From assembly GCA_965263205.1 (NCBI GenBank), contig CBDHHF010000016.1:1878-65877 (forward strand): a stretch of DNA of 64,000 bases, given 5' to 3'. The notes below the pieces were generated by a model. The model was not told the origin of the DNA. It saw nothing but the letters and a program-made list of their open reading frames with translations, and did no database searches. The DNA comes from Rhodothermales bacterium (GTDB lineage Bacteria; Bacteroidota; Rhodothermia; Rhodothermales; JAHQVL01). Made by a program: the position numbers and the translations under genes. Below, piece after piece: positions 4,786-53,128 of this stretch; position 1 is the stretch's first letter, and each line of letters starts with the position of its first letter.

Positions 4786-4826
4786 TTTGTGATCAATTTC
4801 TTGTGTGGGTTTTGAAGCCTCACCAT

Positions 4827-4842
4827 TGCAGCGCTATTGCCA
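4827..4842 (-). promoter_or_regulatory. Candidate sigma54 -24/-12 promoter
   Basis: The minus strand reads TGGCAATAGCGCTGCA (GG-N10-GC, 14/16 to TGGCAC-N5-TTGCA). It ends 41 nt upstream of the ATG at 4785. Confidence 0.4.
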
Positions 4843-4957
4843 TGCGGACAACTGCTTGATGATGGTGTAAATAGGCTCGTTCGTTACCTGATAAGACGTC
4901 AGAATTGTATCCACCTGCTCATGAGCCAGGCAGGTATAGCGCGGTAGACTTGTAAAG

Positions 4958-4997
4958 CCGTTCAACCTTTAACAGCAAACAGGTCAATCCTCCAGGA
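4958..4997. repeat. Dispersed 39-40-bp intergenic repeat (inverted copy at 49773-49811)
   Basis: CCGTTCAACCTTTAACAGCAAACAGGTCAATCCTCCAGGA is the reverse complement of 49773-49811 with 3 mismatches. It contains the palindrome AATCCTCCAGGATT. Confidence 0.8.
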
Positions 4998-5012
4998 TTG
5001 AATGGTCTACAC

Positions 5013-7772: not shown

Positions 7773-7875
7773 AGGTGGTAGCCGGAATAAATAAAAAGGA
7801 GGGGCCAGCGGATTATGGTCGCTGTGCCCGCACCTTGATAGTCATGTATCCCAAACTCGGGTTACAGTTTCCAGC

Positions 7876-8952
7876 TTATGGGGTAGGGTTATTGTTTTCG
7901 CCCGATCCACGGGAGAAAATGCTAAACCCATTACTTATTTCTCTGAACTGACACTGTACCGACAGGCAGATCGATTCGATGAGTTCTTCGGGGGTGGGAT
8001 TTCTAACAAACAACGTGAGTTTGTGGTTGGCATCAATCGCCTCGTCCAGTTCGATATCCATCACATACCTGCGCTCCATTTCTGCGACGATTGACGCAAT
8101 CGACAGGTCCTGAATGGCAAATCCGTTGGAGCGCCAGGCATCAGCTTGTTCTACCGGTACCTGGGAGGCCATGGTTTCGATTTGTCCGTTTGCACTGGTA
8201 ACAACGCGGGCCATATCGCCGGCTTCTCGAAGCGTGTGCTGTTGGGTTTCGTCGTCATGACTTGTTACGAGCACGGTACCCGTTTTAAGCGCTACGCGAG
8301 TTTCTGGCGCGACATCGTGTTCGCGCGCCCATACATTAAAGCTGGTACCCAGCACACGAACTTGCGCATTAAACGATTCAACAATAAACGGCCGATCCAT
8401 TTTTTCGACCTCAAAAAAGGCTTCACCCTGTAAGCTTACGCGCCGCTTGTTGGTTGCGATGAGGGGCCAGGATTCGAAACGACGGGCATACTCGAGCCGC
8501 GAGCCGCTATTCAAGGTTACGACGGATTGATCAGGGAGTACAGCGGTAACCTGTTCCCCTAGCGGAGCCTGTACAACGACTGGAAGTCGCCAGAACCAGA
8601 TCATGCCGGCAAAAAGCGCAAGTGCTACGGCCGCACTCATGGTGGTCCATTGCATGGCTCGTTCACGTGGATGCCGGGCGCCTGACAGCGATGGACGGTC
8701 AGGAGCACGGCGCGAACGTGGTTTCGACGCGTCTGGCTGTGGTACGTCGCCGGCAGCATCAAGGGAGCGCTCCAGTTCTTGCAGCGCTGCCTCGGTATCT
8801 GGAATCAATGCGGGTGATTCGGTAGTGCCATCTTCGTCCATATGCCCAAGCAATTGCCAAACGCGCAATACGCGCGCCTGCTCTTCAGGCGTCTTCTGCT
8901 GCAGTTCTTCCTGCAGTTCGGGAGGTAAAGATGAATGACGTGGCGAACTCAT
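7876..8952 (-). CDS. FecR-family anti-sigma factor
   Basis: One TM segment (AAVALALFAGMIWFW). FecR domain (VTLNSGSRLEY..LQGEAFFEV..FIVESFNAQVRVLGTSFNV). It overlaps the sigma gene by 4 nt. Confidence 0.9.
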   Translation of the reverse strand: MSSPRHSSLPPELQEELQQKTPEEQARVLRVWQLLGHMDEDGTTESPALIPDTEAALQELERSLDAAGDVPQPDASKPRSRRAPDRPSLSGARHPRERAMQWTTMSAAVALALFAGMIWFWRLPVVVQAPLGEQVTAVLPDQSVVTLNSGSRLEYARRFESWPLIATNKRRVSLQGEAFFEVEKMDRPFIVESFNAQVRVLGTSFNVWAREHDVAPETRVALKTGTVLVTSHDDETQQHTLREAGDMARVVTSANGQIETMASQVPVEQADAWRSNGFAIQDLSIASIVAEMERRYVMDIELDEAIDANHKLTLFVRNPTPEELIESICLSVQCQFREISNGFSIFSRGSGENNNPTP

Positions 8953-9524
8953 AACTCAAGTAATGAGGGTTCGAAAGCTTCAATACGATGTTGTAAATGG
9001 GTTAATGCGCGCATAATGTGGTTATTCACAGTTCGCGGTGAAATCGCCATAATATCGGCAATTTCACGGTGGCTCAACCCTTGAAAACGGCTAAGTAAAA
9101 TCGCCTCCCGCTGTCGATCAGGCAATTCCTCTATCCACACCTTTAAACGTGTCGAGAGGGTACTCACATCAACCATTGCATCCGGCTGCTCCCGTTTGGG
9201 GATTTTACCAGATGACTGCTGCTTGATGATTTTGTGCTTTTCGTCATGGATCCGCTCATCTCGCAGATGTCGTATGGCGCGATTCTTTGCCATCTGATAG
9301 ATATATGCTTTTAATGAGCGGGAAGGGTCCAGCGATGTCCGGAGCCCCCATAGCGAAATAAATACATCCTGAATCAAATCGTGTGCAAGCGCTTCGTCTT
9401 TGACAATGCGGTGCACATAGCGAATCAGCTCTTCACGAAGCAACCGAAACAGATCCCCAAAAGCACTCCTGTCGGAGGCATTCAGGCGCTTGCAGTACTC
9501 TTCAAAAGAAGGGCTTGTACTCAT
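8949..9524 (-). CDS. ECF RNA polymerase sigma-70 factor
   Basis: Region 2 (DLIQDVFISLW..YIYQMAKNRAIRHLR) and region 4 HTH (LSHREIADIMAISPRTVNNHIMRAL). Confidence 0.9.
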   Translation of the reverse strand: MSTSPSFEEYCKRLNASDRSAFGDLFRLLREELIRYVHRIVKDEALAHDLIQDVFISLWGLRTSLDPSRSLKAYIYQMAKNRAIRHLRDERIHDEKHKIIKQQSSGKIPKREQPDAMVDVSTLSTRLKVWIEELPDRQREAILLSRFQGLSHREIADIMAISPRTVNNHIMRALTHLQHRIEAFEPSLLEL

Positions 9525-9641
9525 TGGGATGGACTAATTCCTTAGCTATTTAGTTGAATAGTACACAAGATAGCCGGCATGACTACAAGCCGGCAAGATA
9601 GGTTGGTATTTAATTGTCGTTACGGACGAAGAAGGGTTGTT

Positions 9642-9805
9642 GATTGCGGATTGTTGAATGCGGATTGTTGAATGCGGATTGTGGATCTGCATTAGGCTCG
9701 GCATCCTGAGCCATGCGAAGGATCCCTTCGGGGCTTGCAGCCCCTCGAATAATGAATATCGAGCAAGGAACCCCGAATGTCGAAGGAAAATTCAATCACT
9801 CCTCA
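9642..9805 (+). repeat. REP-like intergenic element, copy 1 (family shared with 37825-37996)
   Basis: Shares GATTGC(G/A)GATTGTTGA..CTGCATTA..CATCCTGAG(C/T)CA(T/C)GCGAAGGATC(C/T)CTTCGGGGCTTG..CGAATA..GAATATCGA..CGAAGGAAAA..GATCACTCCTCA with copy 2. It also contains a 14-bp internal tandem (GATTGTTGAATGCG x2). Confidence 0.8.
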
Positions 9806-9886
9806 ACTCCTCACTCCTCACTCCTCACTCCTCACTCCTCACTCCTCACTCCTCACTCCTCACTCCTCACTCCTCACTCCTCACTC
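9798..9886. repeat. Heptanucleotide microsatellite (ACTCCTC)n, about 12 units
   Basis: There are 11 perfect tandem ACTCCTC units at 9806-9882, plus one degenerate unit and one partial unit. The array abuts the stop codon (9885-9887) of the DUF5683-like gene. Confidence 0.95.
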
Positions 9887-10679
9887 AAAACCTCACTGTC
9901 AGCCTAACATTGTGCTGATGAGGCGTCGGCACGTAGTTCAGTCTTACGGGGGCGTTACCTGGCGTCGGATTTCTCAACAGCGCGTCGACGTAGCTGAACA
10001 CCCATATGCCAGCAGCTGCTACCGCCAGATTGTTGCGGGCTTTGTGCCAGGTGTCAAACGTATCATACCGATTGGCGATATCAGCGGGTGTTGTTGCGGC
10101 AAGGTAGTCGTCTTCTGCTTGCTGTCGCTGAAGATGAGCAACAAGAGCCGATACTGACGTTGCACCCCAGGCAGACATCAATAAAATTCCTTTCTTTCGC
10201 TCATTTTTATATAGTTGCCCCCAGCCGGGAAGAATCATCGATCGCATGACCGCCGCTGGTCTTCGATCTTCAACAATCAAATACCTTAACTCAGTCTCTG
10301 TAACACTTGTCGTGCGTTGCAACGCCTGCAATTCTTCCATGAATTCCATCACTTGGGGCGGCGTATCGCGGGGTGAGAGTTGCAGGGCCGGGTTAACCTG
10401 TAAGGCCAGCGCGAGTTGTTTGCGTGTGCCGGCCTGGTCATTTCTGGCAAACAGAATGAGCGCATACACCGTATGGATTTCGCCCAGTTCATTCGGTGAG
10501 AACCGCTCAAAAGAGGCTAGCGCTTCCTGAATGCGGGCTTCTGCAACCGAGAAGTCCAAATTCTCATACGCTCCCTTGATATCGCTGACCACGGCTTCAT
10601 TAGACTGCTGGGCGAGGCAGTTTGTGCTTATCCCACAAAACACAAGAACCAGGGCGATATGTAGCGCGCGGCGGAGCAT
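9885..10679 (-). CDS. DUF5683-like membrane protein with TPR-like N-terminal part
   Basis: Signal peptide. The motif ILPGWGQLYKNERKKGILL, followed by hydrophobic segments, is typical of the Bacteroidota DUF5683 family. It starts 3 nt after the Kelch gene. Confidence 0.6.
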   Translation of the reverse strand: MLRRALHIALVLVFCGISTNCLAQQSNEAVVSDIKGAYENLDFSVAEARIQEALASFERFSPNELGEIHTVYALILFARNDQAGTRKQLALALQVNPALQLSPRDTPPQVMEFMEELQALQRTTSVTETELRYLIVEDRRPAAVMRSMILPGWGQLYKNERKKGILLMSAWGATSVSALVAHLQRQQAEDDYLAATTPADIANRYDTFDTWHKARNNLAVAAAGIWVFSYVDALLRNPTPGNAPVRLNYVPTPHQHNVRLTVRF

Positions 10680-10682
10680 GGG

Positions 10683-12782
10683 TCAGCGCACAAGGGTCAA
10701 TAACTGGGTTTGTAGCCGGTCGTCGACGCGCATGACAACAAGGTAGCGCCCACTTGCAACCAGACGCTGTTGATTATCGCGGCCATCCCATATCACTTCA
10801 TGCTGGCCGGCCGGTAAGGGATGCGCCAGTAACGTTTTTATTTCCTGGCCCGACAGGTTATATATCGCAATGGACACTGTTAACGCCGTCCGTTCGAGGA
10901 CAAACGGGATCCTGGTCTTGCTGACGAACGGATTCGGGAAAGCCGGCGCAAGGTTGAACGCGCGTAGGGGCACCTCGTCTTCATTGCTTACCGGGCTGAC
11001 GCCGCCAAATGAAAACGTTGTAGACCAATCACTGGTGCCTACGGCATTAAATGCGCGGACTCGCCAGAAAAATTGGCCGCTTCCTGGTGAATCCAAATCA
11101 ATACCAGGTGTGACAAGCGTGGAGTCTACCAGGATTTCGGAGAAGGTATCTGTTCTTGCTAGCTGGAATCGATAAGATGCTGTCGTATCCCCGATCCAGG
11201 TAAATGTGATGGCCGGTGTATCGACTTCGGCATTGTTGGTTGGTGTCGTTAAAATGGGGATGGCAGGCAGTGACGCTGCAACCAACAGGTCAAACATCTG
11301 CGTGCTGGTATCCTGCCCATCGAAGAAGGATAGCGTGACAGGAATGATACCCACGTCTGCGAGGGCTGGGGTACCTGTAAGGGCCGCAGAGCCATCGCCG
11401 CGGTCTTGCAGGGTTAACCACGCCGGCAAAGAAGCTGCACTGATGACAATCGCATCTCCCTCCGCATCTGTCGCCTCGATCTCATAAACGTATGCCGTTT
11501 CAGCAAGGACACCTTCCACAGGCAGGGTTTGTACTTGCGGCGGATCGTTGACAGGGGTAATGGTTAGTTGCACGGTTGCGAGCGCCGATGCGCCGGCAGC
11601 GTTCTGAACGGTATAGGAAAACAGGTCGAGTCCGTTGTAATCTGCTTGTGGTACATAGCGGAAAGTCCGCGCATCGATTTGGGTGACAACACCGTTTTGC
11701 GGTTGGCTGAAGCCGGCAATGGTAAGTGGGGTGCCGGAAGGATCGATGTCATTGCCCAACACATCAACTGTAACCGCTGTGTCTTCGGGTGTGGTCGCTT
11801 CATCATTGGTGGCTGTAGGTGCTGCAATCACATCGAACGCTTCTATGCTCGCCAGCACCTCGCCTGATGCATTTACACCACCAAACACAAACAGCTGATT
11901 ATCTGCAAATACTGCCGCTGCGTTTTCACGGGCTTCAATCAACGAAGCGGCAAGCTCCCATCTATTCTCTTCCGGAATATACCGGTTGACCGTAGCGACC
12001 ACCTCGTTATTACTCATGCGCCCACCGATGACGTATGCAGCGCCATCAAGCGCAGCCGCAGTCAATCCGCCGCGAGCAGGCGCGAACGCAGCGCGTTCCA
12101 TAACGCCGTCGGTTGTATTAAATCGCTGTACAAGATTCAGCGGGCCAAAAGGACTAAAACCGCCAAAGGTAAAGGCTGAATCTGCAAGGGGTAACGCCGC
12201 AAAGGAGGCGCGTGCTACGCCAAGATCCCATGCGGGGAAGGGTACCCATTGATCCGCAGCTTCGTCGTAATATTCTACAGTGTTCAGGAATTGCGCATTT
12301 TCATTGGAGCCGCCGGCGGCATAGAGCGTGTTTTCGAGTACCAGCGCAGACAAACCCGCCCGGTTTGCTTGCAGACTTCCAATGGTATCCCAACGCTGCA
12401 AAACAGGATCATAAACTTCCACCGATTGCAACACGCTACTGTTGTTGCCCTGGCCGCCCATTACATAAATCTTGTCATTTAGTACAGCTGCTGATGCATT
12501 GAATCGAGCAATATCCATAGACGGAAGCGTTGTCCATGTATCATTTTCTGCATCATAGCGCTCTACAGTAGTAAGGGCCTGTCCATTTGCGTTTTGGCCA
12601 CCCAGCACGTACACCTGGTTCTCCAGCGCCACTGCCGTCACGCCCGAACGCGCGGTTGGCATTGGCGTACGGGATTGCCAGCTACGTGGATCATCAGCAT
12701 GGGCCATGCCGACGAACAGACTCGCCAGTAACAGGCACAGGAAGACACGTATGCGGGATGTTATGTGTTGATTAACAATCAC
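10683..12782 (-). CDS. Kelch-repeat / cadherin-like / Ig-like surface protein with T9SS C-terminal sorting domain
   Basis: About six Kelch units (..VYVLGGQNANGQAL..VERYD..W..). Cadherin-like segment (TNDEATTPEDTAVTVDVLGNDIDP..VNDPP). He_PIG-like segment (ASLPAWLTL..LTGTP). CTD FPNPFVSKTRIPF..IYNLSGQEI..GRYLVVM..LTLVR. Confidence 0.85.
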   Translation of the reverse strand: MIVNQHITSRIRVFLCLLLASLFVGMAHADDPRSWQSRTPMPTARSGVTAVALENQVYVLGGQNANGQALTTVERYDAENDTWTTLPSMDIARFNASAAVLNDKIYVMGGQGNNSSVLQSVEVYDPVLQRWDTIGSLQANRAGLSALVLENTLYAAGGSNENAQFLNTVEYYDEAADQWVPFPAWDLGVARASFAALPLADSAFTFGGFSPFGPLNLVQRFNTTDGVMERAAFAPARGGLTAAALDGAAYVIGGRMSNNEVVATVNRYIPEENRWELAASLIEARENAAAVFADNQLFVFGGVNASGEVLASIEAFDVIAAPTATNDEATTPEDTAVTVDVLGNDIDPSGTPLTIAGFSQPQNGVVTQIDARTFRYVPQADYNGLDLFSYTVQNAAGASALATVQLTITPVNDPPQVQTLPVEGVLAETAYVYEIEATDAEGDAIVISAASLPAWLTLQDRGDGSAALTGTPALADVGIIPVTLSFFDGQDTSTQMFDLLVAASLPAIPILTTPTNNAEVDTPAITFTWIGDTTASYRFQLARTDTFSEILVDSTLVTPGIDLDSPGSGQFFWRVRAFNAVGTSDWSTTFSFGGVSPVSNEDEVPLRAFNLAPAFPNPFVSKTRIPFVLERTALTVSIAIYNLSGQEIKTLLAHPLPAGQHEVIWDGRDNQQRLVASGRYLVVMRVDDRLQTQLLTLVR

Positions 12783-12839
12783 GCCTGTACAGAATATGGT
12801 CGCTTTTTGAAGCTCATATGGTGGATAAAGCCCTTTTTT

Positions 12840-40230: not shown

Positions 40231-41583
40231 TTAATCCATGGCCTCAATCCAGCCGGTGCGACCGTTAGGGGAGGTCACGCCGACGAATCCGCCAAATTCC
40301 CCAAAGACAGGCAATTCACTATTGGCTCCGATGCTATCAATAGCCACGGCTGAAATGCTTGGGCTATGATGAATGGAGCGCCCAGAAGCCAACTGCATGT
40401 TCCGAATGGGATCATCCGCATCTTCTGTGAGCGATGACAAGATGAAGCCAGATTCTCCGTTTGGTAATTCAACCGAATACCAGTTCTCGGTGCCACCCAG
40501 GACGCGTAAAGCCGTATGGCGTGGTAATTTGTCGACCATCTCTGTTTTGCGTGATGGTCCTTTGCGGAGTCGCGCAGAGTTAGACGTGATTCTCACCCAT
40601 TCACCGAGCCGGCTCATGTCGGCTGCCACGGGCGGCATATGGTCTGTCAGGTCTTTGATAAACGGCAACGGATCGACGGCAGATCGCGCGACGTAAATAC
40701 CAAAATGAAGGTGCGGCGGTGTATTGTAGGCATTGCCGGTACGACCGACGGTACCCAGGGTATCGCCTTTCTGGACCCGCGAAAATTCCTCAATCAGGAA
40801 TTCATCGAGATGCGCGTAGTAATAGGCCTGATTTCGTGAGTTATCGCGGACCCATACCACTTTACCACCAATGGCTGTTTCGTCGATACGGGCTACATAG
40901 CCGTCCGCAATAGCGACAACAGGCGTCCCCGTGAGCGCAAACACGTCGACGCCTTTGTGCAGGCGCCGGCCGCCATCGCGAGGGGCGCCCCAAAAGCTGT
41001 GGATGTGCATGCTGCTGTGGCCGGCCACAGGAAACCCGAGGGAGGCATCAACTTTTACGTCGAATGTGTACCGCCCGCCACGCAATAGCTCCGGTTGCAA
41101 GCGGATGAGGTAGGTGAGGTTGCGTTTGGGCTCTACCTGGATTTTATACAGGCTATCGGCTGTAGCAACGTGGCGTGGTGCCTCTGTTGGATCTTCTGGC
41201 AATTCAAAAAGATCGATAAACAGGTGCATCGAGTCTTCTGACTGCACTGAGACTTCAATTTCGAGCAGTTGCCCCTGCAGTACATTGATGTGGTAACTGC
41301 GTGCAGCGACTTCTTTAGGGTCAAGGTAGCCAACTTCCCGGTAGGGAGAGGTCACTTCTACAGATTGACTGATAGCGATCTGGCTAGCATCAAGCCAGGC
41401 CTGGCCCAGGGCAGTTTCCTGCAGGCCGGCTTCTCTAAGCGATACCGAATAAGCCTGGTGCGGCGTTAGGTGTTGCGAGCTTTTCCTCCCCTCAATTATA
41501 GCTTCATCCGCACAACCCGATAGCAACAACCATCCGCTGCATACAAGCGAAATAAATAAAAATCTGGACGGGGTCTCAGGCAT
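40231..41583 (-). CDS. M23-family metallopeptidase lipoprotein with C-terminal SH3-like domains
   Basis: Lipobox LLLSGC. M23 motifs HKGVDVFA..GTPVVAIADG..YYAHLDEF..GNAYNTPPHLHFGIY. Confidence 0.85.
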   Translation of the reverse strand: MPETPSRFLFISLVCSGWLLLSGCADEAIIEGRKSSQHLTPHQAYSVSLREAGLQETALGQAWLDASQIAISQSVEVTSPYREVGYLDPKEVAARSYHINVLQGQLLEIEVSVQSEDSMHLFIDLFELPEDPTEAPRHVATADSLYKIQVEPKRNLTYLIRLQPELLRGGRYTFDVKVDASLGFPVAGHSSMHIHSFWGAPRDGGRRLHKGVDVFALTGTPVVAIADGYVARIDETAIGGKVVWVRDNSRNQAYYYAHLDEFLIEEFSRVQKGDTLGTVGRTGNAYNTPPHLHFGIYVARSAVDPLPFIKDLTDHMPPVAADMSRLGEWVRITSNSARLRKGPSRKTEMVDKLPRHTALRVLGGTENWYSVELPNGESGFILSSLTEDADDPIRNMQLASGRSIHHSPSISAVAIDSIGANSELPVFGEFGGFVGVTSPNGRTGWIEAMD

Positions 41584-42501: not shown

Positions 42502-42657
42502 GCACGCCTGACGCACTTCTAACACCAATCCCGATACGCCTCTGATACATTGCTAGAAGCTGATAAAACATTCTGAAATTAGCACCCACTGAAGTTTCCA
42601 GTAGGAAAGTAAGTGCTATTGAAGTTCACCTGGCATCAGGCCCGTAAGCCTGACCGG

Positions 42658-43210
42658 GTGAACTTTTTTTGTTTATAGATGGATTTTCGTGCCTGCGAGA
42701 TTTTGTGTTGGGGGGGAGTGGTTGTCGGAGATCCTTTACAGGGTTCAGGATGAAGTGGGAGGAGCGGGGTGCCATTCTTCCACGTCATGCCGGACTTGAT
42801 CCGGTATCCAGGAGGCGTTGGCCATGTGCGGGGATAAGGCAAAGCGTAGTGCTCGCCCAGATCCTTCGCATGGCTCAGGATGACGTGGTTGGAGCAGCTC
42901 AACAATCCGCAATCCCAATGCCGCATTCCACCGTGTGAACTTTTTTGTTTATAGATGGATTTTGGTGCCTGCGGGTTTTCGTGTTTTCGTGTTCGGGGGA
43001 GTGGTTGTCGGAGATCCTTTACAGGGTTCAGGATGAAGTGGGAGGAGCGGGGTGCCATTCTTCCACGTCATGCCGGACTTGATCCGGTATCCAGGAGGCG
43101 TTGGCCATGTGCGGGGATAAGGCAAAGCGTAGTGCTCGCCCAGATCCTTCGCATGGCTCAGGATGACGTGGTTGGAGCAGCTCAACAATCCGTAATCCAC
43201 ATTCCACCGC
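42658..43210. repeat. Tandem duplication of a ~277-bp composite repeat unit (2 copies)
   Basis: Unit 1 is 42658-42934 and unit 2 is 42935-~43210, near-identical apart from a divergent ~40-bp stretch near the 5' end. Each unit carries three short hairpin modules, including GATCCTTCGCATGGCTCAGGATGAC, the reverse complement of the REP core at 9700. Confidence 0.9.
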
Positions 43211-43334
43211 CCCCCTAATACACTCGACATTCGGCATTCGAAAATCGACAATAAAAAATCCCTGGTCTTGTAAACCCATCTAGCCTATCCTGTGTCCATA
43301 GGGGCAGAACACAAACAGGTGGACAGTAAGCGCG

Positions 43335-43898
43335 GTGACAGACGCAACCCAACAACAGATACATCAGACGTTTCGCGATGTGGTGCATACGCACCAGCGG
43401 GACCTGTATCTGTGGGCCTTCCGGCTGACGGGCAACCACCACGACGCGGAAGATTTATCGCAAGAGGTGTTCATCAAGGTACACGCTGCACTGGACACGT
43501 TCAGGGGCGAAGCCGGCATGAAAACCTGGATCTACCGCATTGCTGTCAATACCTACCTCAACAAACGACGCAAGAAAGCAGTCACGTTTATGAAGCTGCA
43601 AGATGACATCGAACAAACCATGCAAGCCCAGGCCGGCGGGTATGGGGCAGAAAATGTATTTCGCGATACCGATGCTGCCGTTGAGTCGAATGCCATCAAA
43701 GCTTTTGTAGACAAAGCGCTCCAACATCTTTCACGCAAAGAACACATGGCGTTTGTATTACGCCACTACAACGATTTGTCGGTGAAAGAAGTAGCGGAAG
43801 CCATGCAGGTGGCCGAAGGCACCGTTAAAAGTCTGCTTTTTCGCGCCGTCCAGAAATTGCGCAAACAACTGGCCTTTATCGGAAGCCCCGGACATTAA
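43335..43898 (+). CDS. ECF RNA polymerase sigma-70 factor
   Basis: Region 2 (AEDLSQEVFIKVH..WIYRIAVNTYLNKRR) and region 4 (LSVKEVAEAMQVAEGTVKSLLFRAVQKLR). GTG start. Confidence 0.88.
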   Translation: MTDATQQQIHQTFRDVVHTHQRDLYLWAFRLTGNHHDAEDLSQEVFIKVHAALDTFRGEAGMKTWIYRIAVNTYLNKRRKKAVTFMKLQDDIEQTMQAQAGGYGAENVFRDTDAAVESNAIKAFVDKALQHLSRKEHMAFVLRHYNDLSVKEVAEAMQVAEGTVKSLLFRAVQKLRKQLAFIGSPGH

Positions 43899-43936
43899 TC
43901 GGGCTACTTCAGGCCTGCGTAAAGCTCAAACGAATT

Positions 43937-44797
43937 ATGTCAGATCAAGCGTGTACTTCCAGAGAACATCAAATTGTAGATGCCCTTTTCGGGGATCTTG
44001 ATGCTGCCGGCTGGGCCGACCTGCAACAGCACCTTGATAGCTGCAGTGCATGTGCTGCCGAGTTTCAGGAAATGCAACAAACACTCGCCGTGACTGCACA
44101 GGTACCGGAGCCTGAGTTGCCGGCGTCTTACTGGTCTGAATACAACGAGCGGTTGGCGGCGCGGATCGAGGCGGCGCGTCCATTTGGTCATCTTACCCGG
44201 CTGCGTGACGAGATTCGCAACCGCCTGGCACCCCTCTTTATGCCGCGGCCCTCCGTCATTCAGTGGGGTGGAGCGCTGGCGCTTGTCTTACTGGGGGTAT
44301 TCATTGGCCGGCAATGGCAGAACGAACCGGCCGTGATACCGGCACAGCCGACACCGGGGCAGGTAGACGCTGCATTACAAACCGTCCAACTCACCGAAAA
44401 GACGCGGGAGTACCTCGATCGCTCAAAAATTTTACTGCTCGGCCTTGTCAACTTTGATATCGAGGAAGATGACCCTTCCTTTTTTAACCTGCCGCAGCAG
44501 CAGGCGCTGGCCAGTGAGCTGGTACAAGAAGCAGCGCTACTCAAAACCGAATTGAACGAAAGCAGGGAGCAACAGCTGTCTGCCCTCATCGAAGACCTGG
44601 AGTTGATCCTCTTACAAATTGCCAACCTGGAGATGCAGCAAGATGTGCCCTCTATTGAGTTGATCCAGCGTGGTGTGGATCGGGGGGCATTGTTGCTGAA
44701 GATCAATCTGGAAAAAATGAAACTTTCCGAACGCGAAGCGCCGGCGCCGGCCAAAACCGCGGACGAAGAACAGGCGGCTGGACTGCTCATGTTGTAG
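43937..44797 (+). CDS. Anti-sigma factor (zf-HC2) with one TM and a coiled-coil periplasmic domain
   Basis: The H-x3-C-x2-C motif (HLDSCSAC) lies near the N-terminus. TM segment GGALALVLLGVFIG. It lies directly downstream of the ECF sigma gene. Confidence 0.75.
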   Translation: MSDQACTSREHQIVDALFGDLDAAGWADLQQHLDSCSACAAEFQEMQQTLAVTAQVPEPELPASYWSEYNERLAARIEAARPFGHLTRLRDEIRNRLAPLFMPRPSVIQWGGALALVLLGVFIGRQWQNEPAVIPAQPTPGQVDAALQTVQLTEKTREYLDRSKILLLGLVNFDIEEDDPSFFNLPQQQALASELVQEAALLKTELNESREQQLSALIEDLELILLQIANLEMQQDVPSIELIQRGVDRGALLLKINLEKMKLSEREAPAPAKTADEEQAAGLLML

Positions 44798-44844
44798 CTC
44801 CGCACCGCTGTACTCAACCTGAATATCATTGAACGAGAAAAACC

Positions 44845-46401
44845 ATGCGTAATAGACAATTAATGGTGATGATAGCCGGCCTGGCTTGCCTGCTGATTGC
44901 AACGCCTGCCACGCCCGCCACGGCCCAAACAGACGCAGCTGAGGCGTACAGCAGAGCGTATGAATTGCTGATTGGCTCTGAGTATCGAGCCTCTAATGAA
45001 GCATTTTCCCGGTTTATGGAGGCGTATCCCGACAGTAAATGGTCAGATGATGCGACGTACTGGAGCTGCCATTTGATGGAGAAAATGGAGGAAGAGGCAG
45101 AGGAGACATTCAGTTGCTACAGCATGTTTGTAGAAGCTCATAAACGTAGCAAGTGGGTAGATGACGCGAAGGCGAACATGATTCGTATTGGCCGCAAGCT
45201 CGCTTTGCAAGGAAATCCGCAGTATGAAGCCAAGATCGAGTCACTGCAAGAAAGTGACGACGAAGAAGTTGCGCTGGCTGCTTTGTATGCGCTCCAGAAT
45301 ATCGGAGATGAAGACGCATATGAAACGATTATCGAACTCTATGAGCGCTCAAATAGTGCCGACTTCAGGGGGCGTATCGTGTATATCCTCGGGAATTTTG
45401 ACAGCGACGACGTTGTCGAGCAACTGACGGTGATCGCAACAGACGATGCTTCTGAGTCTGTACGCAAAAACGCAGTGTACGCGCTTGGCAACAGGGGCGG
45501 GCGTGCTGCTTCCGATGCATTGATTGATGTTGTCGAAAATGGTGACGACGAAGAAGTGCAAAAAGCTGCGCTTTACGCACTGGGGAATGCTGACGAGGCG
45601 GGTGTATCTGCTTATTTGATGGGGATTGCTCGCGAAACCCGAAATGTAGAACTGGGACGCGCAGCTACCTATGCATTAAGCAACACAGGCAGTTCTGGAG
45701 CTACCGATGCCTTGATAGCATTGATGAAGACCGAGTCTGCGCTGGTGGAAGTACGGAAAGCAGCGCTTTATGCGCTTGGTAACCAGGGTAGTGAAGCTTC
45801 GCTTGTGGCCCTGCGTGATGTCGCAATCGATGGAGATGAAGCATCGCTTCGTAAAGCGGCCGTACATGCCATGGGGAACCATGACCGTGCAGGTACCATG
45901 CTGCGGGATGTATACGAGCGTGTATCTGATACAAAGATCAAAGAAACTGCACTGTATGCAATTGGCAATTCAGATGACAATGGTGCAGCCGGCTTCCTGA
46001 AAAACGTTGCACTTTCAGAAGCAAACGAAGACCTGGCACGCGTGGCTATGTACGCCCTCGCCAACAACACGGATGATGAAGAAAGCGATCTGATGGAGAT
46101 CTATGAAAAGTCGCGGCATGCTTCTGTGAAAAAAGCTACGCTCCATCGTCTGGCTGATTCGCCCAATGCGCTGATGAAAATCCTGGAGTCAAGCGATGAC
46201 CCCGATATCCGGCAAACAGCCGTCTATGCACTTGGCAATGCCGGCGATGATGACGTTGTCCCAACGTTGATGAAAATTGCGAAGGAAGATGCTGATGTAT
46301 CGGTGCGCAAAGCTGCTGTTAACGCGTTGGGTAATATTGGGTCGGATGCCGCGCAAGAGGCCATTCTTCAGATTCTCAAAGAAGGCATAGGTCAAGATTA
46401 A
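44845..46401 (+). CDS. Exported HEAT-repeat protein with YbgF/BamD-like TPR N-terminus
   Basis: Signal peptide (..TPATPATAQ). At least 9 repeats of the type (V/I)RK.A(V/L)YALGN. Confidence 0.8.
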   Translation: MRNRQLMVMIAGLACLLIATPATPATAQTDAAEAYSRAYELLIGSEYRASNEAFSRFMEAYPDSKWSDDATYWSCHLMEKMEEEAEETFSCYSMFVEAHKRSKWVDDAKANMIRIGRKLALQGNPQYEAKIESLQESDDEEVALAALYALQNIGDEDAYETIIELYERSNSADFRGRIVYILGNFDSDDVVEQLTVIATDDASESVRKNAVYALGNRGGRAASDALIDVVENGDDEEVQKAALYALGNADEAGVSAYLMGIARETRNVELGRAATYALSNTGSSGATDALIALMKTESALVEVRKAALYALGNQGSEASLVALRDVAIDGDEASLRKAAVHAMGNHDRAGTMLRDVYERVSDTKIKETALYAIGNSDDNGAAGFLKNVALSEANEDLARVAMYALANNTDDEESDLMEIYEKSRHASVKKATLHRLADSPNALMKILESSDDPDIRQTAVYALGNAGDDDVVPTLMKIAKEDADVSVRKAAVNALGNIGSDAAQEAILQILKEGIGQD

Positions 46402-46417
46402 AACTTGGTGCAAGCAA

Positions 46418-47032
46418 ATGAAATACAATTACTTAGGTACTGTGCTGGTTGCCTGTTTTATTGGATCGATGCTCGTTGTGGGAGGGGCACAGGCTTGTAA
46501 ACATTATCCTTTCCTGAGCAAGTGGATGGGTGGCAATTGTTGGCTAAATGATGTGGAAGGCTTGGCGTTTACAAAAGCCGAGACGCAGCCACTAGATATA
46601 CAGCTCTTAAGCGTCTCAAGCGCTAAGAGTAAAGACGTCACAAAAGATGCCATCTATGCGCTGGCGCGTACGGAGTCTGAAGATGCAGTTGTTGTGCTGC
46701 GTGCATTGGCGCTCACGCATGAATCCCTCGAAATACGGAAGGCCGCGCTGTATGCGCTGGCGCAATGCATGGACGACGAGACCCTTTATCAGACGTATAG
46801 CGATATCGCGCTTTATGGCGATGAATTGGACATACGTGTTGCTGCAGTGTATCAACTCGGCCAGCTAAGTCGTGCAGAGGCGGTCCCGTTTCTCACAGAT
46901 CTTGCCCTTGCGCCGTATCCGCTGTCCCTTCGAAAAGCCGCAGTGCATGCACTGGAGTCGAACGACTCTGAAGCTGCGCGACAGGCGCTCCGGACCATTC
47001 TGGCCAAAACTTCAGCATCGCTGGCAGGATAA
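46418..47032 (+). CDS. Exported HEAT-repeat protein
   Basis: Signal or lipoprotein-like N-terminus (..VVGGAQAC). Repeats IRKAALYALAQ, IRVAAVYQLGQ and LRKAAVHALES. Confidence 0.75.
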   Translation: MKYNYLGTVLVACFIGSMLVVGGAQACKHYPFLSKWMGGNCWLNDVEGLAFTKAETQPLDIQLLSVSSAKSKDVTKDAIYALARTESEDAVVVLRALALTHESLEIRKAALYALAQCMDDETLYQTYSDIALYGDELDIRVAAVYQLGQLSRAEAVPFLTDLALAPYPLSLRKAAVHALESNDSEAARQALRTILAKTSASLAG

Positions 47033-47064
47033 CCTGTCTGAATAGCATATTTCAGGAGAACGTT

Positions 47065-48207
47065 ATGCACGCATTCAACTATCAAAACACAATAACACTC
47101 TTTTTGCTGCTCGTCTTTGTGTTGCCATGGACTGCAACCGCGCAGGAGGTGACGGTTCATCCGAATCCAGAACAGCCACTCGAAAAGCGGATGGATTGGG
47201 CCAAACAAGAAGCCGGCAATACCTCTGGGTACTGGGTAGGGTATCAAATCACAAAATACATGCGGCCGAACGTATGGATGGGGAGCATAGGTGGCAAAAA
47301 TTGGCAGCAGCGTACATCGATGTATGCCATGCTGGGGCAGGCAGATCGTGAACAAGAATTGCCGCCTGAGTTGCAAAAAGAGCTGGGTTTCTCCATGCGG
47401 GGAACGATGCATTTTGGCAAAAACAAACAAAAAGATGACGTGCGTGTACAGCGCGAGGTAGCCGTGCTGATGTACATGAAGGGACGTAGAAAAGCGCCGA
47501 CGGATATCCTTGTGACCAATATGTCGCTTGGTGTCGACCTGGAAGGTGCACCGTTGTTTTGGCTCGGCGCTGCTGACGACGAGCAGAGCGTGGCGGTATT
47601 GCAAGACGTTTTTTATAACATGCGTAGCAACGATCTGAAGTCGGATGTATTGGGGGCAATCAGTGTGCACGAAAACAAAGAAGGACATTTGCCATTTCTC
47701 GCAAGCGTGCTCGAAGATGATCCTAGTGATGAGGTGCGTGAAGATGCTGCATTCTGGATCGGACAGTTAGATATTCCCCAGAGTCTGCCGCTACTGCAAC
47801 AAGCAATTGCCAACGACCCATCGATGGACGTACGTGAAAATGCCGTTTTTGCGTTGTCAGAAATGTCCTCTTCAGAGGCACTTGACGTCTTGATCGACCT
47901 GGCGCAGCGGGGCCGGCCCGAGGCGATTCGCAAAAAAGCGATCTTCTGGTTGAGTCAGCATGCATCAAAAAATGCACTACACGTCATCGAGGACATTGTA
48001 ATGGCTGAAGAAGATATTGAAATACAGGAGCAAGCTGTGTTTGCGCTGTCCCAATTTCCTGCCGATGAAAGTGTGCCGCGCCTGATCGAGATTGCCGAAA
48101 ATCATCACAACCTCGAAGTGCGCAAGAAAGCCATCTTCTGGCTCGGTGATTCAGGCGATCCGCGTGCTGTTGATGCGTTGGTTTCGTTGGCGCGGAAGAA
48201 GAATTAG
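47065..48207 (+). CDS. Exported HEAT-repeat protein
   Basis: Signal peptide (..LPWTATAQE). The C-terminal half has repeats VRENAVFALSE, IRKKAIFWLSQ, IQEQAVFALSQ and VRKKAIFWLGD. Confidence 0.78.
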   Translation: MHAFNYQNTITLFLLLVFVLPWTATAQEVTVHPNPEQPLEKRMDWAKQEAGNTSGYWVGYQITKYMRPNVWMGSIGGKNWQQRTSMYAMLGQADREQELPPELQKELGFSMRGTMHFGKNKQKDDVRVQREVAVLMYMKGRRKAPTDILVTNMSLGVDLEGAPLFWLGAADDEQSVAVLQDVFYNMRSNDLKSDVLGAISVHENKEGHLPFLASVLEDDPSDEVREDAAFWIGQLDIPQSLPLLQQAIANDPSMDVRENAVFALSEMSSSEALDVLIDLAQRGRPEAIRKKAIFWLSQHASKNALHVIEDIVMAEEDIEIQEQAVFALSQFPADESVPRLIEIAENHHNLEVRKKAIFWLGDSGDPRAVDALVSLARKKN

Positions 48208-48273: not shown

Positions 48274-48310
48274 GACAAACGCCGGCGCATACGTGTGCCG
48301 GGCGTTTGTC
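48274..48310. terminator. Putative bidirectional terminator hairpin
   Basis: GACAAACGCC-N17-GGCGTTTGTC between convergent genes, with a weak T tract. Confidence 0.45.
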
Positions 48311-48928: not shown

Positions 48929-49763
48929 TTAATATCGGTCGGGTGCAAATCGATGGGCCAGGTAGCCTGAGGCCGCTTCAAGGTCGATTGCGTGTACCAG
49001 CACACCTTCTTCGCCATAAGGCAGATGTGCGATGCATGAGCCAGCCGGCGTGATGAGGCTGGTAGCTGATTCCTGAAAGGGCAGCGCATAATTCACGCTT
49101 GCAAAGTAGATCGTATTTTCGATGCTCCGCATAAGCATGGCTTTCTCATAATATGGTGCATCTGTGGCCCCCCATGAGGTGAGTTCGATACCGTTTTTTG
49201 TTGCCCCTGTGTGCTGGGGATGGAAAAACAATGTGGGCGCCTTTGCGTGCGGCCCAACGTACCGTTTCAGGGTACCGCCATCCTTCGTGACAGATGGCAA
49301 TGCCGAATCGAAGCCCATCTGCCTCAAAAATGTGGCGTTCGTGCCCATGGATATAGTTTGTTTCCTCTGAGGGGTCCAGTTGGTTTTTAGTTTGATACCC
49401 GAGTGCGTTACCCGCAGCATCAAATACATATGCAACGATTTGCCGGCCCTCAGGGGTAATGCGCTCCATACCCATGATTGTGGCGATACCCAAATCGCTT
49501 GCCCAGGCCTGTACCTGGGTGTAAACAAGATCATGGGCTTCTTGATCAAAAGCCGGTATATCAAAATCCAACCCGCGAAGTCCAGGGAGGTAGGCTTCCG
49601 GGAAACATACGATGGTTGCACCTTGTGCAGCTGCTTCAGCCATCAAGCGCTTTGCGCGGGCTAAACCATCGGGAATGGACTTTGGGCTACAGCTGGTGAA
49701 GCAAGCGCGATTTTCATGTGGGTTTTGAGGTGAAAACGTGATGTGTGGATGCCCTAAGTGCAA
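48929..49763 (-). pseudogene. Carbon-nitrogen hydrolase (nitrilase superfamily) with one frameshift
   Basis: The N-terminal part has FPEAYLPG (Glu) and ..FGIAICHEGWRYPE (Cys). The frame breaks at ..AHIVF|HPQHTGATKNG... The C-terminal part, ..YYEKAMLMRSIENTIYFASVN.., is in the other frame. Confidence 0.8.
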
Positions 49764-50029: not shown

Positions 50030-51607
50030 ATGCGCGTGTATTGTACAGGTTGTTCAAATGTTAGTACGATGATTCGTCCGTTTTTTTTCTATGCCATGTT
50101 GTTGCTTGTATGGGGAGGTACTACTGCGATTGCCCAGCCGGCGCCAGGTGGGGTAACACGCGGTCTGGAGCTCTGGTTGCGGGGACAAGACTATGAAGCG
50201 CAGGGGCAACAGGTTAGCTGGCCGCCTTACGCAGGGATGCTAAGCGGGCCAACACAAACGACCGATTCCTGGTTTCCTGTTCGTACGCAAGGTTCGAGGC
50301 AAACGAACGGCGAAACGGTAGTGACATTTGACGGTGTGGATGATCATTTATTGTTTAAGGTAAACGCCTTCGATGGATTGGTTGGCAAAATGGAGGCGTA
50401 CGTTGTGTACCAGGCATCTGCACAAGGGGCTATTCTTGGCACAGTCGGAGGGATAAACGAGCAATTCTCTTTACAATCTGATGGGCAGATCATCACGGGG
50501 GGTGACACGCTTGACCTAATGGGGGCCGCAGCATTTCCTGTGTTGCTGCAGATGCGGCATGTTGAACGCTATTTGGCGGCGCGCATGAATGGTGCTGCAT
50601 GGGATAGCGTAGGTTCGACATCCTGGTCGGGCATTGCCGATCCGGTTGCTTTAGGGCAACAAGGGCTAACGGGTATGCTGCCGTTTGCTGGATGGATAGG
50701 CGAAGTTATTGTGTATAACCGCCGGCTCGATGCGTTCGAGTCAGATCAAGTGCAGACGTATCTCGCGTTGAAATACGGTTTAACCACGCCTCAGAGTTTC
50801 TATGCGTCAGATAGTGCTCAGGTGTGGAGCCAGTTCGGGCATCCTGAAAACGCATTCAACGTGGCTGGCATAGGTCGCGATGATGCGGCTGGCCTTTCGC
50901 AGACGACATCGCGTTCGGTGTTACCTGAAGCCGTCGTGCGTATGGCAGCAATGAATGCATTGCCTGACCTTGCGTACCTGATATGGGGGAGTTCAGATAG
51001 TACGCTAACAGAAAAGCCGTCCTCGATAAACAGCAACCAGGTCAACGTACTCCGCCGGTTCTGGCACATCCACAAACGAAAAGAACCAGGCCCGATACGC
51101 GTAAGTTTTGACTTGTCTGATGCTACTGTTACAGGCAATGCTCCTGCTGATTACTGGCTCATTCTTGATCGTGATGAAGATCCCACCAATGGTATCCGTA
51201 GCGCATACCCTGCTGCTGAAGTATTCGCAGACAGTGTTGCGTTTGAAGGGGTGAGGTTTTTAGACGATGATTTCATGTCGTTGGTGACGCACAATCCTTC
51301 GAGTAGCATCATTAACGTAGGGATTGATGAGCAACCAGCGCATTTGTCGTTGACACTCGATGCCGCGTATCCTAATCCGTTCGCGTTGCGGACCTCCTTG
51401 CGCTATACCGTTCCTGTCGGCGGTGTAGTTGAAATCGTTGTGTTTGATGTGCTCGGAAGAGAAATCATGCAACGCCACAACGCCTGGAAGCCGGCGGGGG
51501 AATATCAGGTCGACCTCGATGCAAATCAACTGGTCCCAGGCATCTACTACGTCCAACTCCGCGCAGCAGGGATGCAACGTACCCGTTCCATCACCCTGAT
51601 CCGCTAA
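50030..51607 (+). CDS. LamG/concanavalin-like domain protein with T9SS C-terminal sorting domain
   Basis: LamG-type pattern (TFDGVDDHLLF.. / ..GWIGEVIVYNRRLDAFESDQVQTYLALKYGL). CTD AYPNPFALRTSLRY..VFDVLGREI..GIYYVQL..ITLIR. The start may instead be the ATG at 50069. Confidence 0.82.
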   Translation: MRVYCTGCSNVSTMIRPFFFYAMLLLVWGGTTAIAQPAPGGVTRGLELWLRGQDYEAQGQQVSWPPYAGMLSGPTQTTDSWFPVRTQGSRQTNGETVVTFDGVDDHLLFKVNAFDGLVGKMEAYVVYQASAQGAILGTVGGINEQFSLQSDGQIITGGDTLDLMGAAAFPVLLQMRHVERYLAARMNGAAWDSVGSTSWSGIADPVALGQQGLTGMLPFAGWIGEVIVYNRRLDAFESDQVQTYLALKYGLTTPQSFYASDSAQVWSQFGHPENAFNVAGIGRDDAAGLSQTTSRSVLPEAVVRMAAMNALPDLAYLIWGSSDSTLTEKPSSINSNQVNVLRRFWHIHKRKEPGPIRVSFDLSDATVTGNAPADYWLILDRDEDPTNGIRSAYPAAEVFADSVAFEGVRFLDDDFMSLVTHNPSSSIINVGIDEQPAHLSLTLDAAYPNPFALRTSLRYTVPVGGVVEIVVFDVLGREIMQRHNAWKPAGEYQVDLDANQLVPGIYYVQLRAAGMQRTRSITLIR

Positions 51608-51956: not shown

Positions 51957-53054
51957 TTACTTAAGGCCTAATCCCAGTACTTCTTTGCTAAACCGAACAC
52001 TGCGTTCTAGTTCCGCCAATTGGAAGGCCTGGGTTGCGCTTTGGCGGTCCTCATCTTCAGTTGGCGAGAAGGGGGGAACGCGATAGCCACGTGCTGCCAT
52101 ATCGAGCCAGCGACTGTATTCTACGGCGCGAATGTCGCGATAGGCCGGCCAAAACGCGTCGTCATCCACATTGAACGAGCGCGCAAATCCAGAAATAATT
52201 TCTAACTGCACCGGTGCATCCGGACAATGAGTAGCAAACGCATCCATGTACGCGTGCCAGTCGGTCAGGCCTTCACCCATTGCCATCCACTGGACAGCAA
52301 CGCCGGCATCTGTTTTCCAAAGCATGGAATCACGTATGCCCGTACAGACGGCGTACGGCGCCAGGATTTCGAGGTTGGTTTGCGGATCTTCGAGGGTCCA
52401 GGTGGCATTGCCTGAGTCGAGCGTAGCGCCTACAAAGTCGGGGCCTGCGCGTTCGATGAGTTCTGCGAGCATCCATGCCTGCATATCGCCGGCGTGGTTT
52501 TCTACTGCGATTTTAAGGCCGGCGTCCAGCGCAAGTCCACGTACTGCCTGTAGCGTAGCCACCGTGTCATCAATACGTGCGGGTAAGCCACCCGGCGTCG
52601 TTCTATCCTCCATGCGGCCCTGGTAACAACGAACGACATCGGACCCTACCGCCTGGGCCACCTTGATCGCGAGCTTTAAGTGCGTTTCTGCATCGCCGTA
52701 CTTGTCATTGAACGCTGTTGACGAACCACAAATACCACCTGTGCCGGCCTGAATTTCCAGGCCAAGGTCGGCCGCTTGTTGCCGGATGTCGTTCAGGTAT
52801 GCGGTGTCGTGGCTTTCATACACATCAAGGTCTGAAAACAACACGGTATCGACATCAAGCGAGTGCGCATATTCCAACAGACGCGGAGCTTTCCAGCCCA
52901 TGGCTCGGATCGAGAAGTTGTCGAACCCGAGTTTCAGGTTGCGCTTTTGGGCAGCTGTAGCTGTGGGGGACAGCAGCTGGCCAGGCGTTGAAACAAGCGA
53001 CAAGCCGGCGCTTGCGGTCAGGGACGTTTTGATAAAATCTCGGCGGGAATGCAT
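51957..53054 (-). CDS. Tat-exported xylose-isomerase-like TIM-barrel (sugar phosphate isomerase/epimerase family) protein
   Basis: Twin-arginine signal ([18 protein letters not shown]). TIM-barrel AP-endonuclease-2-like pattern (..IAVENHAGD..). Start trimmed to 53054. Confidence 0.75.
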
Positions 53055-53112
53055 AACGCGTTGTGCTACAATGACATCAGTGGGGTAATAGGAACAGACG
53101 AATTTCTGTGTT

Positions 53113-53128
53113 TGCAAGCTAATAACCA
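53113..53128 (-). promoter_or_regulatory. Weak sigma54-like -24/-12 element
   Basis: The minus strand reads TGGTTATTAGCTTGCA (GG-N10-GC with a good -12 and a poor -24). It ends 58 nt upstream of the ATG at 53054. Confidence 0.25.

Follow-up and report, generated by a model that had tools for sequence, protein, structure and literature searches.

The stretch of DNA analyzed here (the window, 64,000 nt of a Rhodothermales bacterium, GCA_965263205.1, contig CBDHHF010000016.1, positions 1,878–65,877 of the forward strand) contains a five-gene operon that encodes a sigma factor of the extracytoplasmic function (ECF) type, a single-pass anti-sigma factor, and three HEAT-repeat proteins, which we name P3, P4, and P5 as the products of genes 3, 4, and 5. 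This feature is a genuine, self-contained envelope-signaling operon conserved across many bacterial phyla. It is uncharacterized, and the sigma factor catalogue in which such contexts are listed treats them computationally only. Based on comparison with BlaR1-type receptors, we posit that the most likely role of the HEAT proteins is sensing on the outer side of the cytoplasmic membrane. The five plus-strand open reading frames (ORFs) lie at 43335–48207 and are separated by intergenic gaps of 38, 47, 16, and 32 nt, which match exactly the close packing reported in a preliminary description of this DNA. The gene order given there, an ECF sigma factor followed by a single-pass anti-sigma factor with the sequence HLDSCSAC and then by three HEAT proteins, is borne out by Pfam and TIGR matches and by the sequences themselves. 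A terminator scan revealed no internal terminator of note within the operon. The features of the operon, in window coordinates, are the following, where ZAS denotes the zinc-binding anti-sigma class and TPR a tetratricopeptide repeat.

43268–43300, plus strand: predicted ECF-type promoter, TTGTAAACC-N-GTGTCCATA, a conserved motif upstream of the sigma gene
43335–43898, plus strand: ECF sigma factor, 187 aa, GTG start (Pfam, TIGR02937)
43937–44797, plus strand: anti-sigma factor, 286 aa (HLDSCSAC motif and family profile)
43937–44311, plus strand: anti-sigma cytoplasmic part and membrane helix, residues 1–125 (ZAS motif, hydrophobic window, RsiW profile match)
44312–44797, plus strand: putative extracytoplasmic C-terminal domain of the anti-sigma factor, residues 126–286 (location from the predicted topology)
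44845–46401, plus strand: P3, TPR and HEAT protein with predicted signal peptide, 518 aa (HEAT_2 2e-49, head profile, homologues)
46418–47032, plus strand: P4, small HEAT protein with predicted signal peptide, 204 aa (HEAT_2 1.9e-14), a lineage-specific accessory
47065–48207, plus strand: P5, protein with predicted signal peptide, 380 aa (HEAT_2 1.4e-29)
48277–48307, no strand assigned: candidate operon-end hairpin, GC-rich and imperfect, read by eye (weak evidence)

The hairpin lies between the P5 stop codon and a convergent downstream gene and was not reported by the consensus terminator scan; it is the likely end of the operon.

The gene order of the module is conserved. We located the 80 top P5-homologous loci in species-representative genomes, all of which are metagenome bins, with labels that include Rhodothermales, Bacteroidota, Ignavibacteria, Chlorobi-type, Calditrichia, KSB1, Aminicenantes/Acidobacteriota, Gemmatimonadota, Zhuqueibacterota, and others. 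Gene order was surveyed by tblastn with the window proteins and their sub-domains, and 67 loci contained enough upstream DNA to be informative. In 54 of these 67, the sigma factor, an anti-sigma factor with the same C-terminal domain, a P3 with the same TPR head, and P5 follow one another on the same strand. This four-gene order spans at least seven phyla, among them Rhodothermota, Bacteroidota, Ignavibacteriota, Calditrichota, Acidobacteriota/Aminicenantes, and Gemmatimonadota, so that the synteny on whose presence outside this strain the preliminary description had made its proposal depend is extensive. The anti-sigma factor aligns at 34% identity with a counterpart elsewhere, C-terminal domain included, and P3 homologues in other phyla occupy the same operon position and align over their full length with 33–50% identity. 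P4 orthologues, among the loci compared, occur only in the two closest Rhodothermales loci (L005 and L002). On these alignments, the conserved core consists of four genes, those for the sigma factor, the anti-sigma factor, P3, and P5, and P4 is an extra confined to Rhodothermales. The HEAT proteins are therefore not the trio of paralogues they had been taken for; P3 and P5 belong to two different families, each conserved in its own right, and P4 alone is a lineage-specific addition. The module is present in a single copy in its own 6.5-Mb genome, and no other flanking gene is common to more than 8 of 55 loci.

Two variations on this layout were observed. In eight of the 55 loci (e.g., L001, positions 7192–8043), P5 is followed by another HEAT_2 protein, ~283 aa long, whose N-terminus (LSSC) resembles that of a lipoprotein; it constitutes a second lineage-specific HEAT accessory distinct from the P4 of the window. 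In one Ignavibacteriales bin (L015), the order is rearranged such that the P5 homologue precedes the sigma factor, anti-sigma factor, and P3 on the same strand.

The sigma factor contains Sigma70_r2 (1.4e-17, 63.6 bits) and Sigma70_r4_2 (9e-16, 57.7 bits), has no region 3, and scores 109.3 bits against TIGR02937 (sigma70-ECF), the cutoff of which is 42.9. As judged by this domain composition, gene 1 encodes an ECF (group 4) sigma-70 factor. A maximum likelihood tree places 54 of 56 module sigma factors in one clade (support 92/99) that is distinct from 14 other ECF sigma factors of the same genome, and the window sigma factor groups with its module counterparts from other phyla. The predicted promoter comprises a −35 element, TGTAAACC, at 43269–43276 and a −10 element, TGTCCAT, at 43293–43299, and ends 34 nt before the sigma start codon. 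In its strongly conserved form, the promoter ahead of the sigma gene reads TGTAAACC-N17-GTCTAA. With fixed spacing, the pattern TGTAAACCnTT-N13-CGTCTnA precedes the sigma gene in 44 of the 58 distinct related regions compared. Given that this motif, with its ECF-like AAC in the −35 and CGTC in the −10 region, is kept across phyla, autoregulation is indicated, and the motif at 43268–43300 is predicted to act as a promoter. We built a position-weight matrix from the conserved promoter sites and scanned it over the 6.5-Mb genome, considering a threshold of 14 bits. The operon's own site has the top score genome-wide (21.4 bits) and is the only high-scoring site that is intergenic; every other site of at least 14 bits sits inside a long ORF. 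Regular-expression and matrix scans found no second convincing promoter site in this genome, and regulon candidates from a first scan, on contigs C3, C30, and C34, were dropped as lying inside ORFs or lacking a correctly placed downstream gene. Given that its own site is the only convincing copy in the genome, the sigma factor probably drives its own operon alone. With no further conserved neighbor and no other convincing promoter copy, the earlier proposal that the HEAT proteins are the sole cargo of this ECF operon stands.

The anti-sigma factor carries a ZAS motif, H32-x3-C36-x2-C39 (HLDSCSAC, 44030–44053), in which the histidine and both cysteines are invariant or nearly so among 46 homologues. 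A single hydrophobic window at about residues 105–125 (44249–44311) corresponds to the transmembrane segment. The family profile of these homologues matches the RsiW anti-sigma domain (1.1e-9); the Pfam zf-HC2 model gives no match for the window protein itself and matches many of its homologues. The N-terminal HxxxCxxC domain and the position of the gene 38 nt after the sigma gene identify this protein, at the level of sequence, as a Class I/ZAS anti-sigma factor, and it is predicted to hold its cognate sigma factor via the cytoplasmic zinc-finger domain. Because the anti-sigma domain is cytoplasmic and is followed by one membrane helix, the C-terminal domain is predicted to lie outside the membrane. 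This domain is helical and acidic (pI 4.3), contains the motifs YLDRSKILLLGLVNFD, LIEDLELILLQIANLE, and LLLKINLE, and has no relatives in Pfam or in the PDB. Across the 46 homologues it is the best-conserved part of the protein (motifs YLDRSKVLLLGLVNFD, LIEDLExILLQIANLE, and LLLKINLE), as would be expected for an interface with a specific partner.

Matches to HEAT_2 reach 166, 54, and 103 bits for P3, P4, and P5, respectively (cutoff 27.7), and all three are, by repeat content, HEAT_2/PBS-lyase HEAT repeat proteins (PF13646, PF03130). The hidden Markov model matches and the stacked helix pairs of a structural model of P5 agree with the repeats recognized in the preliminary description, as does their number: the earlier count exceeded 15 PBS-lyase-type units in total, and a strict regular expression finds 16 units with ~32-residue spacing, additional degenerate units being visible by eye. 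Each protein begins with a hydrophobic core and an AxA-type cleavage site, located between ATA and Q in P3 and P5 and between AQA and C in P4. When a 10-residue hydrophobic core with a mean Kyte–Doolittle value of at least 2.0 ahead of the mature part is taken as the criterion for export in homologues, such a core is present in 53 of 59 P3 and 66 of 68 P5 homologues. A hydrophobic N-terminal segment ending in A-Q or a similar pair is found in all 50 aligned relatives of P5. These conserved features support the export signals previously assigned to the three proteins, and the periplasmic-type TPR head of P3 fits the same location; we infer, with good support, that P3, P4, and P5 are exported. 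The mature proteins are acidic (pI 4.5–5.0).

The domain architectures of the three proteins differ. In P3, a signal peptide (residues 1–27) precedes a TPR head (residues 28–125, 44926–45219) and ~12 HEAT units with the signature (V/I)RKxAxYALGN. The YbgF/BamD-like character ascribed earlier to this head is evident at the profile level (CpoB 2e-10, BamD 7e-9, YbgF 5e-6). In P4, Cys27 directly follows the hydrophobic region and is invariant in the three orthologues, which suggests that P4 may be a lipoprotein. P5 is composed of a signal peptide (residues 1–26), an α/β N-domain of 145 residues (residues 27–172, 47143–47580), and a HEAT part of eight to nine helix pairs with alternating FWLGQ and FALSQ signatures. 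An AlphaFold2 model of P5 based on a 50-sequence alignment (predicted local distance difference test score, pLDDT, of 92; predicted TM-score of 0.85) consists of the α/β N-domain, at about residues 28–170, and the HEAT helix pairs, and the N-domain modeled alone has a pLDDT of 86. Foldseek searches with the P5 model match the HEAT part alone, to alphaRep designs and CpcE/F with E-values of 1e-7 to 1e-4; the N-domain has no Pfam match, no PDB sequence match, and a best Foldseek E-value of 1.6. Relatives of P5 number in the thousands. Run against 1.84 billion representatives, a profile of the N-domain identifies 1076 clusters at E ≤ 1e-3 and 550 at the stricter threshold of E ≤ 1e-10, and the domain is nearly always N-terminal in proteins of 360–450 residues.

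A second genomic context of P5 bears on the role of the HEAT proteins. In six loci, P5 homologues are encoded without the sigma/anti-sigma pair and instead come after a repressor of the BlaI type and a Peptidase_M56 protein of the BlaR1 type. BlaR1 carries an extracellular sensor after its fourth membrane helix, and in the M56 proteins of these six loci the segment after the fourth membrane helix is HEAT_2. One metagenomic protein combines, in a single frame, an M56 domain with the HELAH zinc motif, a membrane helix, the P5 N-domain, and HEAT repeats, and a BlaI gene adjoins the gene for this fusion. In the Rhodothermales genome itself, a gene for a BlaI-type repressor precedes one for a BlaR1-like Peptidase_M56 protein that carries HEAT repeats at its C-terminus (contig C9, ~103548–106095, minus strand), a pair without a P5-type partner. 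Given that two unrelated membrane signaling devices have HEAT repeats or P5 at or beside their outward end, we favor a function as sensor or co-regulator over one as passive cargo. The envelope scaffold suggested by the preliminary description is thus not where the evidence leads; HEAT repeats, or the whole P5 module, in the sensor position of BlaR1 point to a sensor or co-regulator.

Sequence and comparison point to an autoregulated ECF/ZAS cassette with HEAT partners that are predicted to be exported, and we consider it moderately probable that sensing or co-regulation in this cassette falls to P3 and P5. In such a system, the zinc-finger anti-sigma factor would hold the sigma factor at the cytoplasmic side, its helical C-terminal domain facing the periplasm. 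P3 and P5, together with P4 in this lineage, would be exported, and P3 and P5 would probably bind the periplasmic domain of the anti-sigma factor. An envelope-derived ligand or state would alter the P3/P5/anti-sigma complex, upon which the anti-sigma factor would lose its activity, most likely through regulated proteolysis of the kind that RsiW and RseA undergo. The freed sigma factor would then transcribe the operon from the TGTAAACC-N17-GTC promoter. Given that the operon is the sole apparent target, sensor and output would coincide in the HEAT proteins, forming a titration-type feedback loop like that of RseB or CpxP. The CpoB/BamD-like head of P3 hints at cues related to outer-membrane assembly or to Tol-Pal. 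As a tentative and somewhat doubtful extension, we speculate that P3 and P5 make up an extracytoplasmic receptor of a portable kind, one that bacteria can plug into unrelated transmembrane devices, either ECF anti-sigma factors or BlaR1-type proteases. Serving as both detector and countermeasure, the pair would sequester a protein or peptide that acts on the envelope, or else a mis-assembled component of the outer membrane, and would thereby tune its own synthesis.

Several points weigh against an autoregulated sensing cassette. With the operon as the sole target, genomics cannot separate sensor from effector. Neither a site-1 protease nor a PDZ protein nor any other proteolysis component is linked to the module in the flanks of the 55 loci. 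The estimate of the regulon is based on one stringent position-weight matrix and one genome, such that weaker or divergent target promoters would be missed. Finally, labels and contiguity can be wrong in metagenome bins, the source of all of the top 80 loci.

The best-surviving alternative, which we nevertheless judge unlikely, is that the HEAT proteins are output only: the anti-sigma factor would sense alone, through its periplasmic domain or via unlinked proteases, and P3, P4, and P5 would be stress products, for example, a periplasmic chaperone or scaffold by which assemblies of the envelope are stabilized. These three genes are indeed the only ones behind the only convincing sigma-dependent promoter, and P5 is in the cargo position, after repressor and receptor, in the BlaI/BlaR1-HEAT loci. 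HEAT solenoids are typical scaffolds, and the CpoB/BamD-like head would fit a structural role in the envelope. An output-only function does not, however, account for the fusion of HEAT repeats, once with the whole P5 module, at the sensor position of BlaR1-type proteins, nor for the HEAT repeats that the sigma factor catalogue reports at the periplasmic end of the anti-sigma factors of ECF277s1 and ECF231. The strict co-inheritance of the anti-sigma C-terminal domain with P3 and P5 across phyla suggests a direct partnership, which also argues against mere output.

A more specific proposal, to which we assign a low probability, is that P5 together with P3 would be an inducible neutralizer that binds an incoming envelope-acting protein or peptide (a lytic enzyme, a bacteriocin, or a contact-delivered toxin), thereby both triggering the sigma factor and sequestering the attacker. 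The logic would parallel that of RsiV and lysozyme or BlaR1 and β-lactamase, with the binding protein itself as the resistance factor. A self-contained cassette with binding-type proteins as its sole output is consistent with this proposal, as are the wiring of the same proteins to BlaR1/BlaI, a classic attacker-sensing and defense-inducing device, the protein- and peptide-binding capacity of HEAT solenoids, and the acidity of the mature proteins. The proposal is, however, pure inference: no toxin or immunity loci are linked in the flanks, PADLOC and immunity libraries not having been searched, and housekeeping surveillance of the envelope would account no less well for the single-copy, core-like conservation across phyla. 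Least probable is a cytoplasmic redox switch in which the HxxxCxxC zinc site would sense thiol or oxidative stress as in RsrA, the HEAT proteins being outputs and the membrane anchor and periplasmic parts accessory. The ZAS motif is invariant, and there are weak matches to the RsrA model (2.4e-4) and to RsrA in the PDB (E = 0.28). However, RsiW, the best match among solved structures, is membrane-bound, redox-insensitive, and controlled by proteolysis, and conservation is higher in the periplasmic domain than in the zinc domain. The exported cargo and the BlaR1-type alternatives point to an extracytoplasmic signal, and most ZAS proteins are not known to sense redox state.

The autoregulated ECF/ZAS cassette that we favor has close counterparts among catalogued ECF groups. 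In ECF277, a one-helix ZAS anti-sigma factor is encoded at position +1 and HEAT proteins at +2 or at +2/+3 (s3 and s5) (Casas-Pastor et al. 2021, supplement; bioRxiv 10.1101/2019.12.11.873521). HEAT repeats are fused to the periplasmic end of the ZAS anti-sigma factors in ECF277s1 and ECF231, and a part for HEAT in sensing was already proposed in the supplement to ECF classification 2.0 (bioRxiv 10.1101/2019.12.11.873521). The association of an ECF sigma factor, an anti-sigma factor, and exported HEAT proteins had thus already been catalogued, together with a proposed role in sensing, a point on which the preliminary description needs amending. ECF277 has been described chiefly from Acidobacteria, Prevotella, and Proteobacteria and was also noted in Ignavibacteriae, with promoters described as "not conserved" and a PDZ protein nearby (bioRxiv 10.1101/2019.12.11.873521). 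The window operon shares the gene order and domains of ECF277 (one-helix ZAS at +1, HEAT at +2/+3); unlike ECF277, it has a strongly conserved promoter and no linked PDZ gene. Its sigma factor is 25% identical to the one ECF277 reference compared (s4, from Myxococcus), which lies on a long, unresolved branch of the tree. In an hhalign comparison of a Terriglobus ECF277 anti-sigma factor with that of the module, only the zinc domain and the membrane helix align, and the motifs of the module anti-sigma factor do not occur among the listed entries of the ECF catalogue tables.

ECF231 is centered on Bacteroidetes, with members also in Balneolaeota and Aminicenantes, and likewise has ZAS anti-sigma factors with periplasmic HEAT repeats (bioRxiv 10.1101/2019.12.11.873521). 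Its −35 element, TGTAACCTT, resembles TGTAAACCTT of the module, whereas its −10 element, GTTCCAC, differs from CGTCTAA. In ECF231 the HEAT repeats are fused to the anti-sigma factor and the context includes adhesins and MacB/FtsX permeases, whereas the C-terminal domain of the window anti-sigma factor has no HEAT match. The window sigma factor is 27% identical to an ECF231 reference in one pairwise comparison; identities of 25–27% to single references carry no information on group assignment. We rejected membership in ECF231 because two ECF231 sigma factors pair with each other (100/99) outside the module clade and the window anti-sigma factor is without HEAT repeats. The ECF group to be assigned, which the preliminary description had left to classification, is therefore settled in part: the tree excludes ECF231, and ECF277, which matches in context, is a candidate group, its s4 reference being 25% identical and on an unresolved branch. 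In a separate locus (L039, positions 3174–12830), a 494-aa P5-like protein is encoded amid four genes for MacB_PCD/FtsX permeases of ~810 aa, with no sigma factor within 6 kb, a context that recalls the MacB/FtsX context described for ECF231s1.

The E. coli sigma-E operon (rpoE-rseA-rseB-rseC) and algU-mucA-mucB offer a functional parallel; as predicted for the window operon, they combine an autoregulated ECF sigma factor, a single-pass anti-sigma factor, and a co-transcribed periplasmic protein. Proteins of the RseB/MucB type bind the periplasmic domain of the anti-sigma factor and gate its proteolysis. RseB has a LolA-like lipid-binding fold, whereas P3 and P5 are built as HEAT solenoids and no solved fold matches the N-domain of P5; we therefore rejected an identity of the HEAT proteins as RseB/MucB-type regulators, which is defined by the LolA-like β fold. 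RseA is not a ZAS protein, and the sigma-E regulon is large in contrast to the self-regulation alone predicted here. Among solved structures, the anti-sigma domain is closest to RsiW of the Bacillus subtilis SigW-RsiW system, a membrane ZAS protein inactivated by site-1/site-2 proteolysis. RsiW is without HEAT partners, and the part of it outside the membrane shows no relationship to that of the window anti-sigma factor. With respect to BlaR1/BlaI (MecR1/MecI), HEAT or P5 replaces the extracellular sensor of BlaR1 in the six related loci and the one fusion; the window operon differs in using a sigma/anti-sigma pair rather than an M56 protease and a repressor, and its putative sensor is not a penicillin-binding domain.

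The individual HEAT proteins also resemble characterized proteins without belonging to their families. CpoB (YbgF) and BamD, to which the P3 head is related at the profile level, are both periplasm-facing envelope proteins. P3 lacks the coiled coil of CpoB and the lipobox of BamD and has a HEAT solenoid after the head, and we rejected its assignment as CpoB/YbgF or BamD on scores below the cutoffs (tol_pal_ybgF 35.4 vs. 90.1 bits, BamD 23.7 vs. 81.4, CpoB 20.9 vs. 383). CpcE/F, NblB, and the designed alphaRep proteins share the repeat type of P3–P5 (Pfam, Foldseek), but CpcE/F and NblB are cytoplasmic, whereas the window proteins have predicted signal peptides. An identity as phycobiliprotein lyase or NblB was likewise rejected (NblB 63.9 vs. 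300 bits, CpcE 30.6 vs. 330, CpcF 22.1 vs. 220); the host is not a cyanobacterium. Beyond the catalogue, we found no paper reporting experimental work on ECF277, ECF231, BlaR1-HEAT systems, or periplasmic HEAT partners of anti-sigma factors, in agreement with the preliminary description, which could assign the module no function from established knowledge.

Much of bacterial signal transduction runs through pairs of ECF sigma and anti-sigma factors, yet the signal, and the components that sense it, are known for only a minority of groups. The module described here is widespread in phyla with few cultured or tractable members (the Fibrobacteres–Chlorobi–Bacteroidetes (FCB) group, Acidobacteriota, and Gemmatimonadota), and, being self-contained and equipped with a sharply defined promoter, it can be tested directly and put to use as an orthogonal switch. 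Should the HEAT proteins prove to be sensors, HEAT solenoids would be established as a type of periplasmic receptor, a function would be found for the orphan P5 N-domain present in >500 protein clusters, and ECF and BlaR1 signaling would be linked via a shared, exchangeable sensor. A portable receptor, if real, would represent a new class of periplasmic sensor composed of a HEAT solenoid and an α/β domain without a known fold relative. If the HEAT proteins are only cargo, the module would be an ordinary uncharacterized envelope-stress operon.

The genes around the operon do not appear to belong to the module. An M23 peptidase gene (40231–41583), a gene for a 525-aa protein ending in a C-terminal sorting tail of the type IX secretion system (T9SS) (50030–51607; its L002 counterpart is annotated DUF8202 and Por_Secre_tail), and an AP_endonuc_2 gene (51957–53117) flank the module in the same order in L002. 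As judged from this comparison, the order reflects local synteny within the family only; the divergent M23 peptidase gene and the downstream T9SS-tail gene, common only to one close relative, were rejected as module members. Upstream of the operon, a 1.75-kb gene-free stretch contains a 283-bp unit repeated 1.9 times with 94% identity (42653–43198). Given that 30–170 bp pieces of this unit have 162 blastn matches genome-wide, including tandem arrays on contig C35, the repeat is built from a dispersed family similar to repetitive extragenic palindromic (REP) sequences or miniature inverted-repeat transposable elements (MITEs) and lies outside the operon. Downstream, two overlapping ORFs of 230 and 205 aa (48929–49763, minus strand) look like a single gene for a nitrilase-superfamily hydrolase split by a frameshift.

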